Part shown: positions 22,745-40,142 of the stretch, piece after piece | Layout: every line of letters begins with the position of its first letter | Numbering within the stretch: the stretch's first letter is position 1 | Assembly: GCA_964565265.1 (NCBI GenBank) | Contig: CAZMEC010000001.1 | Coordinates: 1-53,299, forward strand | Reading direction: 5' to 3' | Source: an uncultured Myxococcales bacterium | GTDB lineage: Bacteria; Myxococcota_A; UBA9042; CAIXZC01 | Length of the DNA: 53,299 nt | Notes under the pieces: generated by a model | Told to the model about the DNA's origin: nothing | Databases searched by the model: none | Seen by the model: the letters and a program-made list of their open reading frames with translations, nothing else | Translations under genes and position numbers: made by a program

Positions 22745-23830
22745 CTAGAACGGGCAGCACAGGATCTGGATGTCATTGACGCCGGTATCATCTCCGTCGC
22801 CCAGGGGGGATTCAACCTTTTGTTCGAGGCCGCACACATAGGTCCCGTCGGGGCACTTGGTCCAGCCCTTCCAACTTCCCCAGCCTGTGCCTCCGGGGGC
22901 GGTTTTGATAACAGCGCCGCACGCCTCAACCCGGCAATTGAGGTTCGCGCCCCGGATGGCACCACCGGCATTCAGCACCCCACCAGTCTTGACCTCGGCC
23001 TTGCTGACATCATTGAGGAAAAGGGGGGCGCCGGCATCAATGTCGTTCGAGTCCATATACAAAGTGCCGAAACCGTTGGTGTGGACGGCCAATGTACCCT
23101 CATAGGTACCGTCGCCCTTCTTGGCGACCGGTTTGGTGCCGCTGACCTTGGTGCCGCCGGCAAGCTGGCCATCGAAGTTGACCGCCAGCACATCACCTGC
23201 CAGATGAGCCATGGCAACTCCACCGTCGCCTCTGTCCGGATTGTTGGTGAAGGTGATGTCGGGTCCGTAGACCGACAGGACACCGCCCACCGACATGGCG
23301 CCGCCCACTTGGGTGCCCTTGCCGTTGGTGTTGAGGTACAGGATGCCTGCGTCCTTGACGCCATTGATCGACGACACGGTCAGGTCGGTGCTGGCCGTGC
23401 TCCAGACCGCGTAGGGCGCGGGGAAGAAGCGCTGCTTGCCGGAAAGGGCGATCCAGGTCTCGCCGGACTTGATGGCGATGCCCAGATAGAGGTCGTCCGC
23501 GGCCTTGACCGCAGTGGTCAGGGCCTGCAGCTTGGCAGGTGCGGTGGATCCCAGCAGCACCGAAAACCGGCCGGCGTAGACCTGCACGGGCTGGATCTCC
23601 TCCCAGGTTGCCGTGGCAGCGGCGGCCCCGTCGAAGATCTGGAAGCGCATCTGAACGGTGGCATTCACGCCCACCCCATCCTTTTCCAGCGTGCCCTGGT
23701 AGGCAATGTTCTTGGGTACCTGATCGTTGGTCTGAAGGCCGTCCGCCAAGACCCTGGTACCGGGCAGCAGCAATGCGGCGACCAAGGTGCCCAGGATTCC
23801 CATTTTCAAGCCGCGAAGTCCCTGCTTCAT
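22745..23830 (-). CDS. Secreted protein with tail-fibre-like N-terminal module and VMO-I-like Cys-rich C-terminus
   Basis: GGAGGAAG RBS then ATG 23830. Signal peptide MKQGLRGLKMGILGTLVAALLLPGTRVLA. NIAYQGTLEKDGVGVN...AGRFSVLLG. C-terminal GWGSWKGWTKCPDGTYVCGLEQKVESPLGDGDDTGVNDIQILCC. Confidence 0.65.
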   Translation of the reverse strand: MKQGLRGLKMGILGTLVAALLLPGTRVLADGLQTNDQVPKNIAYQGTLEKDGVGVNATVQMRFQIFDGAAAATATWEEIQPVQVYAGRFSVLLGSTAPAKLQALTTAVKAADDLYLGIAIKSGETWIALSGKQRFFPAPYAVWSTASTDLTVSSINGVKDAGILYLNTNGKGTQVGGAMSVGGVLSVYGPDITFTNNPDRGDGGVAMAHLAGDVLAVNFDGQLAGGTKVSGTKPVAKKGDGTYEGTLAVHTNGFGTLYMDSNDIDAGAPLFLNDVSKAEVKTGGVLNAGGAIRGANLNCRVEACGAVIKTAPGGTGWGSWKGWTKCPDGTYVCGLEQKVESPLGDGDDTGVNDIQILCCPF

Positions 23831-23891
23831 GATTCTTCCTCCATTGGTTCTCTGGTCTGGATGCTCACTCAATATCGTCTTGGAAACCTGC

Positions 23892-26800
23892 CTATCTAAG
23901 CACATAGCCGATGCTGCAGTCGCCCTCGGTGGGACAGGCGCAGTGGTCTGGGTCCTGGCACAGAATCCTGCCGTCCGTGGAGTCCTCCGTAAGGTCGGCC
24001 CGGAGGGTCCAGACGACCTGCTGGTCGCCTTCGGTGCCCAAACCAGTGGCCTCCACAGTGGGCGCCCAGGGCTGTCCCGCGGGGTTATCCCCAAAAAGCC
24101 GGGTCGTGGGGCCGCCACAGAACCAATAGCCGGAGCGCGGGGCGGACTCGTAGCCGGGACTCAGCAGCAGGTCGGTGTCCGGGCAACCCTGGTCGCACTG
24201 GGGGCCCCCGAAATGCTTGCCACACCCGCAGACCAGCGAGCCGAAATCGTCATCCTTGGCCTCGCCGATGGTGGCATCGGCATCGTTGGCCCAGCCGGGG
24301 CACAGGTTTCGCCAGGGAATGACCACCAGATCCTCTGACCCGTTGGGGTCGCCGTTGACCTGGTCGGGCTGCCATTCGTCGACGCAACCCCTGGTGTAGA
24401 CGGCTTGACCCGGCACGAACCTGGTCAACGCAAAGCCCACGGCCGAGGTCAAGGGAAGGGCCTGCTGCTCGCAGACAATCACAGGATCAAACGGATTGGG
24501 GCCCTGGGCCGGGGGACTGGACGAGGTCAAACAGGTGCCGCCGCTGCACTCGCCCAGGCAGTTCGGGTCGTCCCCGGCACAGGCGATGTGGCATTGATTG
24601 AACCGGTACTCCTGGTCAAAGGCGGAGGGTGGCAGCACCGGGTCCAGCACGGAGGATTCCTCGGCGACCTTGACGCAACGGAACTGACTGTGGTGGGACA
24701 TGCCCCGCCAGACCGAACCATGCAGACACAGCCAGGGGGCGTCCGGCCAGTCGCATTCAGCATCCTGAAGTGGCTGGGTCACCGAACACAGCCCGTGGGG
24801 CGGGAGCTCTCCTCCGGCCGGCACCGCCTCTGTGGGGGGCGGAGGGACGGGGCAACCGCCGGAGGCCTGATCGCAGGACCAGCGGGCGAACTCCAGGCCG
24901 AACTCAGGGCCCTGGGGCCCGTCCGCCGGGTTGAAGGCCCCATCCCTGCTTCTGGTGCATTCGCGCCAGTAGTCCTGGTCGGCGGTCGCGTAGACCATGG
25001 GAAACGCGGGATCGCAGCGGGACCGTTCCTGAATCACATACCGCCCGGCGCCTGGCGCCTGATTGGGCTCCCACCAGCCCCGGTCAAGCTCCAGGAAGAA
25101 CGAGAAGCTGGCAAAGGTGTATTCCTCATCGCCCAGGCCACCTCGGGGCATCCCGTGCCATTCGGAAATATCGGAGAACCCGTTGTGGTTGTAGTCCCCC
25201 TTTTCGGTGCAACCTTTGGTGAGACTGTTGGTCTCGGAGGCCAGGGGTCTGCGCCCCACTCCTGCAGTCGCGTAGGAGGGCACATCGGTCTCCAGGGCCA
25301 GATCCATCTCCTCCTGTTTGTCGTTGCGGACGCTTTCGTACAGGGGAAGCTCCCGCCAGTCCTCGCAGGCACCCTGGTCGCCCCGGCGCAAGGTGGGATC
25401 CTCCAGGCACAGGTAGATTTCAAGCTCCTGCTGGTACTCATTGCGCAGGGCGAAGCGGTTGATTGTGCGTAGGTTGCAGTGGGCGTTTCCCCTCAGGGCA
25501 GGGTCACTGGACTCGATGGAGCTTCTGGCGCTGCTGCGAACCCACCCGTCCTGGTCGGCATCGCAGGGCACGCCGGCCCGAGGCGCGTCGTCCCAGTAGT
25601 ATCCGGGTTCGGTCTCACAGATGCAGACCTTGCTGCCCGCCAAAGTGAAGGGCCAGATCCGGCCGGTCTCTCCAAGGTCGGAGTTGTTGCAGTCCACCTC
25701 GCATTCCACGCATTTTCCGCCATCCATCTCGGTCCAGGCCTGGCTTGGGCCGGCGCAGGGATCGGTGATGCAGGAGGCCGCCTGGCTGGCGCTCTTCTGG
25801 ATGCAGAACTGGTCTGCCGGGCAGGTGACTGTCAGACAGGTAAGGGGGGGCGCACAGATCTCGGGATCGTCCTCGCCGGGAAGCATGCCTTCAAGGCAGG
25901 CGCCGCAGAACTTGAAGGGCGCCGTCCCAAGGCAGATTCGATTCCGGTCGGCACAACCCGCCTCTTCGCAGGTGGCCTGGGGGATGCAGTCGCCAAATTC
26001 GTTCTCACCAAAGTCCGCCAGACATTCGCCGCATTGAGCGTCGGCCTCCAGTTCCACGCAGCTCCGATTGCGGTCGGTGCATTCCTGCAGGAGGCTGGAA
26101 ACGGCCTCCGGCTGGCAGTTCGCCGGGGGACGGGGGATGCAGGTCTCCGACCTCTGGTCGTCCTCCATGAAGCCCTCAGCGCAGCCCCCACAGGCGGCAT
26201 TGCCGTTCTGGTCATCGGCCACGCATTCCCGGTGCAGCGCCTCGCAGTTGGCCAGGATGCTTCCTGCAGCACCCACATCGCAGTTGGGGACTGGCACCGG
26301 CTCGCAGATGCCGCTCTCAGGATTCCACAGGAATCCGGCCAGACAGCTCGCCAGGCAGGCGGCATCCATCCCTGGCAACTCCTCGCAGTCCTGATTGGCA
26401 ACGCAGCCTGATTCATCGCAGGTCAGGGCCTCCCTGCAACGGTCGTCCTCCTGGTCGCAGACCAGGTTGTTGGTGCAGGCGTCCTCCAGGCAGGGGCAGC
26501 CGACAATGTCATTGGTGCAGGCGGCGCAGAGGCCGCTTTCAAAGCACTTGAGATCCTGGTCGCAGACCTCTTCAGCCAGGCAGGGACAACCGTCGCTGCC
26601 TGGAGGACAGGGGTCCGTGACGCACAGGCCGGCCTGACACAGAAAGCCCTTGTCGCACTTCTCCTCCTGGGTGCAGGGGCAGGAGGGGGCGCCTTCAACG
26701 CATTGCTCGCAGAGGCCCTGGCCGGTGCATCGGGCGCCCTCGTCGCAGGTGGAGTTGGCAAAGCACACGCAGCCCACAGCCCCGCGCAGGCAATCCACGC

Positions 26801-39349: not shown

Positions 39350-39359
39350 GGTTGTGCTC

Positions 39360-40142
39360 CTATTTGAATTCGAGTTCGGGGGCGGCAACCGGCTTGCCCA
39401 GGCGGTCAAAACACGCCAGCGACGAGATGGTCAGGCCCGTGAGGTCTGCCTTGCCGCCTGCCAGTGTCTCCAGGGCGGCCACTGTGCCCAGGGCCTCGTC
39501 GGCCCGCGCTATGAAGGACAGGGCCAGCTTCTTGCCCTCGCGAGAGGACACCCCCTGCACCTTGCCCGAGAAGACTGCCTGGACCCCGTCCAGTTCAAGC
39601 AGCACATCGCAGGCCCGGACCTGGCTGACGCCCACCACCAGGCCGCTGCCGGCGGCGGGGGCGCAGAGGTCGCTTACGCATTCCAGGGATCCGCTGCAGG
39701 CGCCACCGTCGCAGGGACAGCCCAAGGTTCCGGCAAGGCAGGTGGCTTCGGGAAGCTGGCAGGAGCCGGCCCGGCATTCCAGCCGCTGGCCTTCGTGAAA
39801 GCCGCAGGGTTTGTCCGTGCCGCAGGGATCATTGAGGCCACCGACCTGGGTTCCTTCCGGAACGCAAAGCCCCTCGGTGCAGACCAGCGCGGGCTGCAAC
39901 CCGGTCGCACACAGATCGCCCTCCAAACAGGGGCAGTTCTGGGTGCCCACCGGACACTCGGATGAGACCGGGACGCACAGCCCGTCTTTGCACTCCAGGC
40001 CGTTGTCACAGGCGTCAGTTGGCAGACAGGGACAGTTCTCGGCCCCGGCCGCACAGGTTTCCTTTTTATCGTCCCCACCGCAAGAGACTGCACCAATCGC
40101 CAATAGCCCCAGCAACGCCAGCAGGCAACGCCCGTTCTTCAT
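39360..40142 (-). CDS. Cys-rich lipoprotein, first gene of the toxin-like operon
   Basis: GGAGGG RBS then ATG 40142. Lipobox LAIGAVSC. Modules CAAGAENCPCLPTDACDNGLECKDGLC, CPVGTQNCPCLEGDLC.., CLAGTLGCPCDGGACSGSLECVSDLC. The stop lies 10 nt before the RHS gene start. Confidence 0.75.
   Translation of the reverse strand: MKNGRCLLALLGLLAIGAVSCGGDDKKETCAAGAENCPCLPTDACDNGLECKDGLCVPVSSECPVGTQNCPCLEGDLCATGLQPALVCTEGLCVPEGTQVGGLNDPCGTDKPCGFHEGQRLECRAGSCQLPEATCLAGTLGCPCDGGACSGSLECVSDLCAPAAGSGLVVGVSQVRACDVLLELDGVQAVFSGKVQGVSSREGKKLALSFIARADEALGTVAALETLAGGKADLTGLTISSLACFDRLGKPVAAPELEFK

Follow-up and report, generated by a model that had tools for sequence, protein, structure and literature searches.

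A gene cluster of an uncultured Myxococcales bacterium that probably encodes a divergent, exported relative of the Tc toxin complex

Architecture of the gene cluster

Tc (ABC) toxins are studied both as insecticides and as programmable protein-injection devices, and are found mostly in Gammaproteobacteria and Betaproteobacteria. To our knowledge, all characterised examples have one TcA architecture, carry no export signals and exit the cell by lysis. The subject of this report is a cluster of five genes, g1 to g5, on the minus strand at positions 22745-40142 of a 53,299-nucleotide stretch of DNA from an uncultured Myxococcales bacterium (assembly GCA_964565265.1, contig CAZMEC010000001.1, positions 1 to 53,299, referred to as the window). 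A first-pass annotation, made from the sequence alone, had described these genes as a Tc-like operon of unusual order and composition. As set out below, the cluster probably encodes a divergent relative of the Tc complex, exported through the Sec and lipoprotein routes, that acts as a translocase for polymorphic RHS toxins.

The five co-directional open reading frames (ORFs) lie in the order g1-g2-g3-g4-g5 (Table 1), and the coordinates, lengths and gaps reported at first pass proved exact. Ten nucleotides separate g1 from g2, g2 and g3 overlap by one, and gaps of 15 and 61 nt follow between g3 and g4 and between g4 and g5. Every gene starts with ATG, preceded in four of the five by a GGAG-like motif a few bases upstream, and the starts chosen expose export signals and agree with the N-termini of homologues. 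The stop codon of g2 overlaps the start codon of g3, and no gene lies between the two. The tight run extends beyond g5 into genes for a hybrid histidine kinase (59 nt away), a LuxR-type response regulator (overlapping the kinase gene by 4 nt) and a 1147-aa exported protein (overlapping the regulator gene by 1 nt). A scan for promoters and terminators returned no excess over shuffled sequences and is uninformative on operon structure.

Three of the products are rich in cysteine: g1 (10.0%), g4 (9.7%) and g3 (4.4%, or 89 Cys, mostly within residues 22-378). As the first-pass annotation had observed, the three share a six-cysteine module, C-x2-G-x3-C-x-C-x5-C-x5-C-x4-C, which in its strict form occurs three times in g1, five times in g3 and three times in g4. 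This module has no Pfam or NCBIfam model, a sub-threshold match to DUF7107 aside.

A TcB-TcC fusion with a hypervariable cargo

By its sequence, g2 is a true fusion of TcB and TcC (hereafter BC), the canonical counterparts of which build the RHS cocoon. Pfam profiles identify SpvB (6.1e-23), FG-GAP_3 (2.8e-18), TcdB_toxin_midN (1.3e-21) and RHS_repeat (1.2e-21), and NCBIfam adds Rhs_assc_core (3.9e-17). Among proteins of known structure, phmmer ranks engineered TcdB2-TccC3 fusions first (6e-42), followed by YenB (5e-33), with TcdB1 also matched; residues 36-218 of g2 align with residues 10-204 of TcdB2. Six calcium-loop-like FG-GAP motifs of the form D-x-[ND]-G-[DN]-x-x-x-D are spread over residues 357-640. 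The TcB plus TcC domain series proposed at first pass is borne out for SpvB, the six FG-GAP motifs, TcdB_midN (residues 619-746), the RHS core and the cargo; for TcdB_midC, Pfam reported no match at E <= 0.01.

Both RHS aspartyl autoprotease motifs, RYLDPWTGRWTAPDP and P-x4-D-x2-G (P-LTMV-D-KT-G), are present toward the C-terminus of g2, and the RHS shell is accordingly predicted from its sequence to end in a core with conserved autoprotease motifs. The cargo that follows, the hypervariable region (HVR), comprises 197 aa and 21.4 kDa, with an isoelectric point (pI) of 10.0 against 4.7 for the remainder of g2, and is without a Pfam match at E <= 1. The HVRs of 14 related BC proteins span 163-223 aa, with pI values of 9.3-11.3 in all but one. 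Cargo loading and translocation by Tc toxins require at least ~20 kDa and a pI of at least ~8 (PMC6868009), and the cargoes of this system are of such a size and charge. When 15 BC tails were compared, only two pairs were detectably similar; most tails are therefore unrelated to one another and the system is polymorphic. The cargo of the window resembles only that of one related locus, L006 (28% identity).

Two further observations concern this family. The BC C-termini of loci L001, L011, L014, L026, L036 and L065 are Gly/Ala-rich, amphipathic and very basic, and resemble membrane-active (glycine-zipper-like) peptides. Additionally, a plasmid of Salinirubellus sp. (match H2, NZ_CP147842.1, 283334-285463) encodes a BC-like protein with an SpvB/TcaC N-terminal domain that aligns to 96% of the N-terminal 720 residues of g2 at 28% identity. 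Salinirubellus is a haloarchaeal genus, which would make this plasmid-borne protein archaeal.

A predicted TcA-like fold in the C-terminal region of g3

The 2013-aa product of g3 is without Pfam or NCBIfam matches over its full length, and phmmer found nothing in the PDB at E <= 10. Its likeness to TcA emerges at the level of predicted fold. An AlphaFold2 monomer model of residues 1020-2013 (994 residues), built on a 42-sequence family alignment, consists of a helical region, helices as long as 67 residues and, at the C-terminus, a beta domain, with a mean predicted local distance difference test score (pLDDT) of 78 and a predicted template modelling score (pTM) of 0.59. When this model was compared to the PDB with Foldseek, ranks 1 to 23 were all occupied by TcA subunits (E 1.2e-9 to 2.9e-4, probability 1.00), the first 22 of these over 729-912 aligned columns at ~10% identity. 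The matches include TcdA1 in its prepore, intermediate and pore states (the pore, 5lki_A, at 6e-9), XptA1, XptA2, TcdA4, YenTcA and TcaA-TcaB. Rank 23 is 6l7i_A, the 179-residue TcB-binding fragment of TcdA1 resolved with TcdB1-TccC2 (template modelling score, or TM-score, of 0.56, target-normalised; E 2.9e-4). After this block the next match is botulinum neurotoxin, at a probability of 0.2.

The predicted fold of the last ~880 residues of g3 resembles that of the TcA C-terminal part, with a helical region, long channel helices and a TcB-binding-like domain, and the likeness is confined to this portion of the model. The first-pass annotation had proposed a TcA channel plus TcB-binding module for the C-terminal ~700 aa; the proposal stands as to predicted fold, over a somewhat longer region, and finds no counterpart in sequence or profile searches of Pfam, NCBIfam and the PDB.

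Two features of the model bear on function. In model numbering, long helices run from 519 to 559, 579 to 647, 662 to 728 and 731 to 766, with a hydrophobic stretch at 598-641 flanked by helical segments 579-608 and 627-647. No 19-residue windows beyond the signal peptide are more hydrophobic than those of this stretch, Gly/Ala-rich residues 1617-1660 of the protein, which lies between two long helices. A hydrophobic window occurs at this place in all 42 family sequences (19-residue maximum 0.9-1.9), where identity is only 22%; hydrophobic character that is kept despite such low identity is as expected of a membrane-inserting tip. Accordingly, at the level of its predicted fold, g3 appears to have the long alpha-helical pore-forming-type domain with a hydrophobic tip that is typical of TcA.

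The second feature is the C-terminal domain (residues 1808-2013), in which conservation across the g3 family is highest (56% mean identity), a peak that fits a conserved docking surface. For profile-profile comparison with hhalign, a canonical split-TcA locus was taken from a Burkholderia ubonensis plasmid and 111 canonical TcA relatives were collected; the comparison was run against 95 canonical TcA sequences. Alignment of g3 to the single Burkholderia TcA was colinear and below significance. The last domain, in contrast to six cross-domain controls (P = 0.17-0.78), aligned to the TcA profile at the same positions with P = 3.4e-4 (probability 38%), and the last domains of both families share the consensus L-x-s-L-t-D-I-(hydrophobic)3-x-Y-T. 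This sequence signal is a supportive hint, not proof, of homology between the C-terminal domains of g3 and TcA. Despite it, g3 should not be filed as a member of the TcA family: what both share is the channel-plus-docking module.

The middle of g3 (residues 425-1030) was modelled with higher confidence (pLDDT 89.4, pTM 0.74) as a series of beta-rich domains with a helical insert. Foldseek returned no significant match for it (best E 0.06 in the PDB and 0.007 in BFVD, at low probabilities), and these domains may represent new folds. Among the low-probability viral matches is p58 of Myxococcus phage Mx8 (TM-score 0.44, target-normalised; E 0.09).

Export signals

All five products appear to be exported, as judged by their N-termini, and the signals are conserved in homologues of g3, BC and g4. 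Lipoboxes end the signals of g1 (...AVSC) and g3 (...AAGC), and Sec signals precede the mature chains of g2 (...VALA|ATG) and g5 (...VLA|DG). The corresponding sequence of g4 (...AQAC) is atypical, and canonical lipoboxes are found in its homologues. Of 53 long g3 homologues, 44 carry a lipobox and several of the others seem to be truncated at the N-terminus, and each of 16 g2 homologues inspected has a hydrophobic signal ending in A-x-A directly before a conserved VSLPxGPGSxxGxGE motif. The claim at first pass that every product carries an export signal therefore holds, with the reservation noted for g4 itself. The accompanying idea of a surface-tethered or periplasm-assembled machine would follow from the signal peptides alone.

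Distribution and conservation of the cassette

Homologues of g3 are all unannotated, and nearly all derive from Myxococcota or from "Deltaproteobacteria" metagenome-assembled genomes (MAGs). A five-sequence profile of the C-terminal 730 residues, searched against 1.84 billion representatives, retrieved 834 clusters (50% identity) at E <= 1e-3, of which 292 reach E <= 1e-30. The top 150 clusters are mostly 1600-2250 aa long, the others seeming truncated, and all have the module placed at the C-terminus or no more than a few residues from it. With each GTDB species represented by a single genome, a scan yielded 178 relatives, the best 80 of which are labelled as Myxococcales, Polyangia, Bradymonadia, Archangium, Sandaracinus and Nannocystaceae, along with a few probably mis-binned MAGs; among these 80 is one cultured strain, Anaeromyxobacter terrae SG22. 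In several genomes the A-like gene is present in two or three copies, located on separate contigs (L010/L036/L051 in JBDRCO01, L019/L054 in JACKFA01, L021/L066 in JAXLYZ01, L013/L075 in DASXVQ01 and L025/L047 in JBILLN01), which suggests paralogous cassettes, possibly with different cargoes.

Synteny was assessed by tblastn of the window proteins against 83 g3 loci. These contain g4 in 72 cases, BC in 52, the N-terminal domain of g5 in 24 and the C-terminal domain of g1 in 14. Where at least 4 kb of upstream and 8 kb of downstream sequence was available (43 "well-flanked" loci), g4 was found in 41 (95%), usually immediately downstream of g3, and BC in 35 (81%). The cassette thus recurs in many Myxococcota genomes, answering the question of conservation that the first-pass annotation had left for checking, and g3 is shown to be co-inherited with g4 and, for most genomes, with a BC fusion across the phylum. 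Twenty-five of the 35 BC genes lie upstream of the A-like gene, nine downstream and one upstream on the opposite strand. The placement of BC before the A-like gene, correctly reported at first pass, differs from the canonical A-B-C order; it was also called unusual, yet the order g1-BC-A-g4-g5 of the window is the commonest pattern within this family. All five genes occur together in L001, L007, L012 and L014.

Eight loci have the A-like gene and g4 with no BC within reach: L004 (16070-25910), L018, L051, L052, L056, L068, L069 and L075. L004 has, in place of BC, two giant proteins downstream that carry FGE-sulfatase and C-type lectin domains. At such loci, the BC gene may lie elsewhere, or the cargo may have a different carrier.

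Profile searches, likeness to TcA and conservation of the gene set were the points on which the first-pass annotation had staked its Tc-like idea, and none of them refuted it.

Accessory proteins and neighbouring genes

Within g4, the C-terminal 700 aa (23895-26000) are conserved. The family numbers at least 177 homologue clusters, none of them annotated, whose sources are Myxococcota, Bradymonadia and deltaproteobacterial MAGs, and consists mostly of lipoproteins. Its profile matched nothing in the PDB, and Pfam gave only stray lectin matches, each in single members, including weak legume-lectin matches in one of 34 aligned sequences. Individual homologues carry Kelch repeats (L001) or FGE-sulfatase and C-type lectin domains (L004). 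By its distribution, g4 counts as an obligate neighbour of g3, the A-like gene.

The small lipoprotein g1 (lipobox Cys21) consists of its three cysteine modules (residues 30-160) and a conserved C-terminal domain of ~100 aa (residues 161-260; 39363-39662) that recurs beside a BC or A-like gene in the 14 loci counted above. The protein has no Pfam or NCBIfam match, and its C-terminal domain none in Pfam at E <= 1. A role as immunity protein was considered for g1 and rejected, as the C-terminal domain is kept in L001, where the cargo is unrelated.

The secreted protein g5 combines an N-terminal domain of ~110 aa (23399-23725) with a partial VOMI-type domain at its C-terminus (22754-22906; VOMI 2e-11). 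The N-terminal domain is shared with the 1147-aa protein (BLASTP E 4e-7, 29% identity over 108 residues), and both proteins have weak, sub-threshold matches to Bdello_MAT_N, the N-domain of the mosaic-adhesive-trimer or adhesive fibre of Bdellovibrio. The 1147-aa protein ends in a galactose-binding-like region (GBD_T9SS_assoc-like, E 2e-5, below the Pfam cut-off) and has an AgmC_N-like segment at residues 528-638 (44.7 bits against a cut-off of 275). It is possibly a second accessory of the g5 kind, and the pair looks like one adaptor domain placed on interchangeable binding tips.

In the window, as in L001, L002 and L004, the cassette is accompanied by a pair of genes for a histidine kinase and a GerE-type response regulator, and g5 of L059 is followed by a kinase with 50% identity; regulation of the cassette by this two-component system is possible. 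The kinase of the window is unusual in having, after HisKA, HATPase_c and a receiver in that order, a second dimerisation domain of the HisKA_3 type, with two HATPase_c stretches reported.

Just outside the co-directional cluster, a gene at 15125-15979 (plus strand) encodes a DsbA-like thioredoxin (Thioredoxin_4 4e-19, DSBA 3e-9). A periplasmic disulfide oxidoreductase of this type could be functionally linked to the adjacent genes, whose products contain ~26-104 Cys each. Upstream of g1, two ORFs (40210-41070 and 41015-41824) have no Pfam match at E <= 1 and were excluded from the system, as they were not found in related loci. An upstream gene at 41656-44205 (minus strand), likewise not found in related loci, encodes 849 aa with CarboxypepD_reg (transthyretin-like) repeats, five in number. 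Farther away, 5070-7259 (plus strand) and 7726-10998 (minus strand) hold unrelated housekeeping-type genes for a TMEM260-like O-mannosyltransferase with TPR repeats, a class-V aminotransferase, a D-2-hydroxyacid dehydrogenase and a DUF1015 protein.

Table 1. Features of the cluster and the genes that follow it, with positions in the window
Feature	Residues	Position	Strand	Description and basis
g1		39360..40142	-	260-aa Cys-rich lipoprotein; ORF and translation
g2		33182..39349	-	2055-aa Sec-exported TcB-TcC fusion (cocoon)
g2 signal peptide	1-29	39263-39349	-	Sec signal
g2 SpvB	60-220	38690-39172	-	Pfam
g2 FG-GAP propeller	~357-643	37421-38281	-	Pfam and motifs
g2 TcdB_midN	619-746	37112-37495	-	Pfam
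g2 RHS core	1773-1858	33776-34033	-	NCBIfam
g2 cargo (HVR)		33185..33775	-	197 aa after motifs RYLDPWTGRWTAPDP ... DNPLTMVDKTGH
g3		27141..33182	-	2013-aa lipoprotein with TcA-like C-terminal region
g3 N-terminus		32049..33182	-	lipoprotein signal (Cys22; 33117-33182), then Cys-rich repeats (residues 34-378)
g3 middle region	425-1030	30093..31910	-	beta-rich domains; AlphaFold2
g3 C-terminal region	1020-2013	27144..30125	-	helical region, long-helix channel, C-terminal beta domain; AlphaFold2 and Foldseek
g3 candidate membrane-inserting channel tip	1617-1660	28203..28334	-	Gly/Ala-rich hydrophobic stretch between long helices
g3 candidate TcB-binding-like domain	1808-2013	27144..27761	-	Foldseek (6l7i_A), hhalign, conservation
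g4		23892..27125	-	1077-aa Cys-rich (lipo)protein
g5		22745..23830	-	361-aa secreted protein
Hybrid histidine kinase		20118-22685	-	directly after g5; Pfam
LuxR-type response regulator		19492-20121	-	after the kinase; Pfam
1147-aa exported protein		16049-19492	-	shares the g5 N-terminal domain; galactose-binding-like C-terminus

Proposed mechanism and alternative explanations

As a relative of the Tc complex, the system might work as follows. After Sec export and lipidation, g3 would oligomerise, by analogy into a pentamer, and remain tethered to a membrane through its N-terminal lipid and a long, disulfide-bonded Cys-rich stalk. The BC cocoon would dock onto the C-terminal domain of g3, the hydrophobic helical-hairpin tip would enter the target membrane, and the unfolded basic cargo would pass through. 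Target recognition, which in canonical TcA is built into the shell, would here fall to separate partners, namely g4, g5 and the 1147-aa paralogue, with lectin-like or variable domains in different genomes. The small lipoprotein g1 would be an accessory, and the adjacent two-component system probably controls expression. Possible targets are neighbouring bacteria, prey or eukaryotic grazers. A more ambitious version of this proposal would make the cassette the first recognised Tc-type translocase that is exported by Sec and Lol and anchored by lipid, with at least four conserved parts (the BC cocoon, the A-like lipoprotein, g4 and small accessories), pushing RHS-encapsulated toxins into neighbours by contact, vesicles or outer-membrane exchange. 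This version is offered tentatively and is judged less likely than not.

A number of results weigh against a Tc-like translocase. With respect to sequence, the Pfam families TcA_TcB_BD (PF18276), Neuraminidase and VRP1 were absent at E <= 10 from five family C-termini, the 42-sequence profile of the g3 family returned only coiled-coil noise from the PDB (such as the P22 tail needle), and hhalign of the full C-terminal region against the 95 TcA sequences gave 631 colinear columns at P = 0.011 and a probability of only 3.7%. The evidence from fold comes from one AlphaFold2 monomer model, of which the putative tip is the least confident part (pLDDT only 45-66). Global TM-scores to TcA are low (0.13-0.26), as is expected when an elongated multi-domain monomer is compared to chains from pentamers. 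As the first ~420 residues of g3 are taken up by the signal and Cys-rich repeats and the middle is unmatched, the VRP1-type shell, neuraminidase-like and receptor-binding domains of TcA were not found (Pfam; Foldseek of residues 425-1030), and without a TcA shell fold the spring-loaded syringe mechanism may not apply. Export signals were called by eye and by regular expression, without a dedicated predictor, and are a weak link; the window shows no evident route for export across the outer membrane, and a lipoprotein pentamer of ~1 MDa together with its cocoon is hard to fit in the periplasm. BC is not within reach in ~19% of the well-flanked loci. Finally, no immunity gene follows g2 within the cluster, which would be unusual if the system targets bacteria. 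The lack of any gene between g2 and g3 speaks against a classical toxin-immunity pair; the options left are eukaryotic grazers, prey or a device that acts strictly outward.

In the main rival explanation, g2 would be a stand-alone, Sec-secreted SpvB/propeller/RHS toxin that needs no dedicated channel to reach its target, with g1, g3, g4 and g5 as co-regulated surface adhesins or matrix proteins and the fold of g3 either a relic or a convergent helical bundle that plays no part in translocation. Proteins with a signal peptide, SpvB, a beta-propeller and RHS repeats have been described as a self-contained "TcdB/TcaC" trafficking class in many phyla (PMC3482391), and for the signal-sequence Rhs proteins of Myxococcus, which act in kin discrimination, a review reports no partner (PMC10433427). 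The missing sequence match between g3 and TcA and the loci devoid of a nearby BC are also as this explanation would have it. It would not, however, explain why the significant Foldseek matches of g3 are TcA subunits in 23 of 23 cases, the TcB-binding fragment alone among them, nor why the hydrophobic tip is kept in character and conservation within the protein peaks in the candidate docking domain. Moreover, BC accompanies g3 in 81% of well-flanked loci, on the same strand in 34 of 35, the genes are tightly coupled in the window, and the cargo obeys the rules of Tc translocation. Since the TcA-specific fold match, the conserved tip and the peak of conservation in the docking domain are left unexplained, a stand-alone g2 is considered unlikely.

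In another alternative, g3 would itself be a Tc-derived export conduit in the outer membrane of the producer, tethered on the periplasmic side with its channel pointing outward, onto which BC docks and through which cargo is released to the exterior; the cassette would then serve for secretion and not for injection. That all components are exported by Sec or as lipoproteins, that the window holds no further visible machinery for crossing the outer membrane and that the A-like protein is missing the canonical receptor-binding shell are each in keeping with such a conduit. However, a free, unfolded 21-kDa cargo on the outside would still need a way into its target, and the lectin-like and variable domains of the accessory proteins suggest target recognition, making this arrangement improbable. 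A chance juxtaposition or gene-calling artefact, prompted by the GC content of 62-71% and by long spurious ORFs on both strands, is refuted by full-length homologues for all five genes, strong curated-domain matches or confident models, and the recurrence of the arrangement in dozens of genomes. An exported, divergent relative of the Tc complex is thus the explanation preferred here.

Comparison with known systems

The architecture of g2 fits exactly the "TcdB/TcaC-type" polymorphic toxins, a class that has been noted in deltaproteobacteria and many other phyla (Zhang et al. 2012, PMC3482391). In the parts of that study considered here, the toxin is presented as its own trafficking determinant and a TcA-like partner is not mentioned, whereas in the present cassette an A-like lipoprotein and g4 are conserved. 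Natural TcB-TcC fusions such as ABA52082.1 of Burkholderia pseudomallei similarly unite B and C in one polypeptide and were set aside "for clarity" in a survey (PMC7861908); g2 differs from these by its Sec signal and its divergent lipoprotein partner g3. Given both precedents, neither the signal-peptide SpvB/propeller/RHS toxin nor the natural BC fusion is new in itself.

Other exported toxins are known from the same phylum. The teneurin-like proteins (TLPs) of Myxococcota are exported by Sec/SPII, probably lipid-anchored, enriched in Myxococcota and built as a YD shell around a polymorphic C-terminal toxin (PMC13018210). These are single-chain proteins with an FN-plug, NHL propeller and YD shell and no channel partner described, whereas g2 has SpvB, FG-GAP and TcdB_midN instead. 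SitA lipoprotein toxins, which are transferred by outer-membrane exchange, and the signal-peptide Rhs proteins of kin discrimination are likewise exported and polymorphic (PMC5562445, PMC8546572, PMC10433427). The likeness is by description, with no sequence relation implied, and SitA comes with immunity genes, whereas none is apparent here; involvement of outer-membrane exchange for this cassette is pure speculation. The delivery route of the myxobacterial signal-peptide Rhs proteins has been called an open question (PMC10433427), and the system proposed here, if real, would be the missing delivery device for such toxins and an answer to that question.

The remaining comparison is with the canonical Tc toxins of Photorhabdus, Xenorhabdus and Yersinia, as exemplified by TcdA1 with TcdB2-TccC3 and by YenTc. 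These share with g2 the SpvB domain, propeller, TcdB_midN, RHS shell, autoprotease core and basic cargo of ~20 kDa, and with the model of the C-terminal ~880 residues of g3 the TcA fold and hydrophobic tip; the A-like and BC genes are adjacent in the present cassette as well. The differences are considerable. The A component has no detectable sequence similarity to TcA and no VRP1, neuraminidase-like or receptor-binding domains were found in it; it is a lipoprotein with a Cys-rich stalk of ~350 aa and ~600 residues with no fold match in the PDB. The BC component is naturally fused and has a Sec signal, its gene most commonly precedes that of the A component, two to three additional exported partners (g4, g1 and g5) are conserved, and the hosts are Myxococcota rather than Gammaproteobacteria or Betaproteobacteria. 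Canonical Tc subunits have no signal sequences, as the first-pass annotation had stated, and are released through lysis mediated by the holin, endolysin and spanin of a type 10 secretion system (T10SS; PMC10847048). That mode of release is not seen here: every product has an export signal, and a scan of window ORFs detected no lysis-cassette domains.

The literature searched, which leaves most subscription journals outside its coverage, yielded no account of a TcA-like protein from Myxococcota, and no curated family covers g3 or g4. The analysis offers a candidate function for two sizeable families of "hypothetical proteins". The g3 family, invisible to sequence searches, seems to keep only the channel and docking module of TcA, with the shell replaced by a lipid anchor, a Cys-rich stalk and separate partners. 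If this is true, it would reveal the minimal conserved core of the Tc machine and offer new, smaller scaffolds for engineering, and it would mean that the Tc channel can work tethered to a membrane, without the shell of its canonical relatives.

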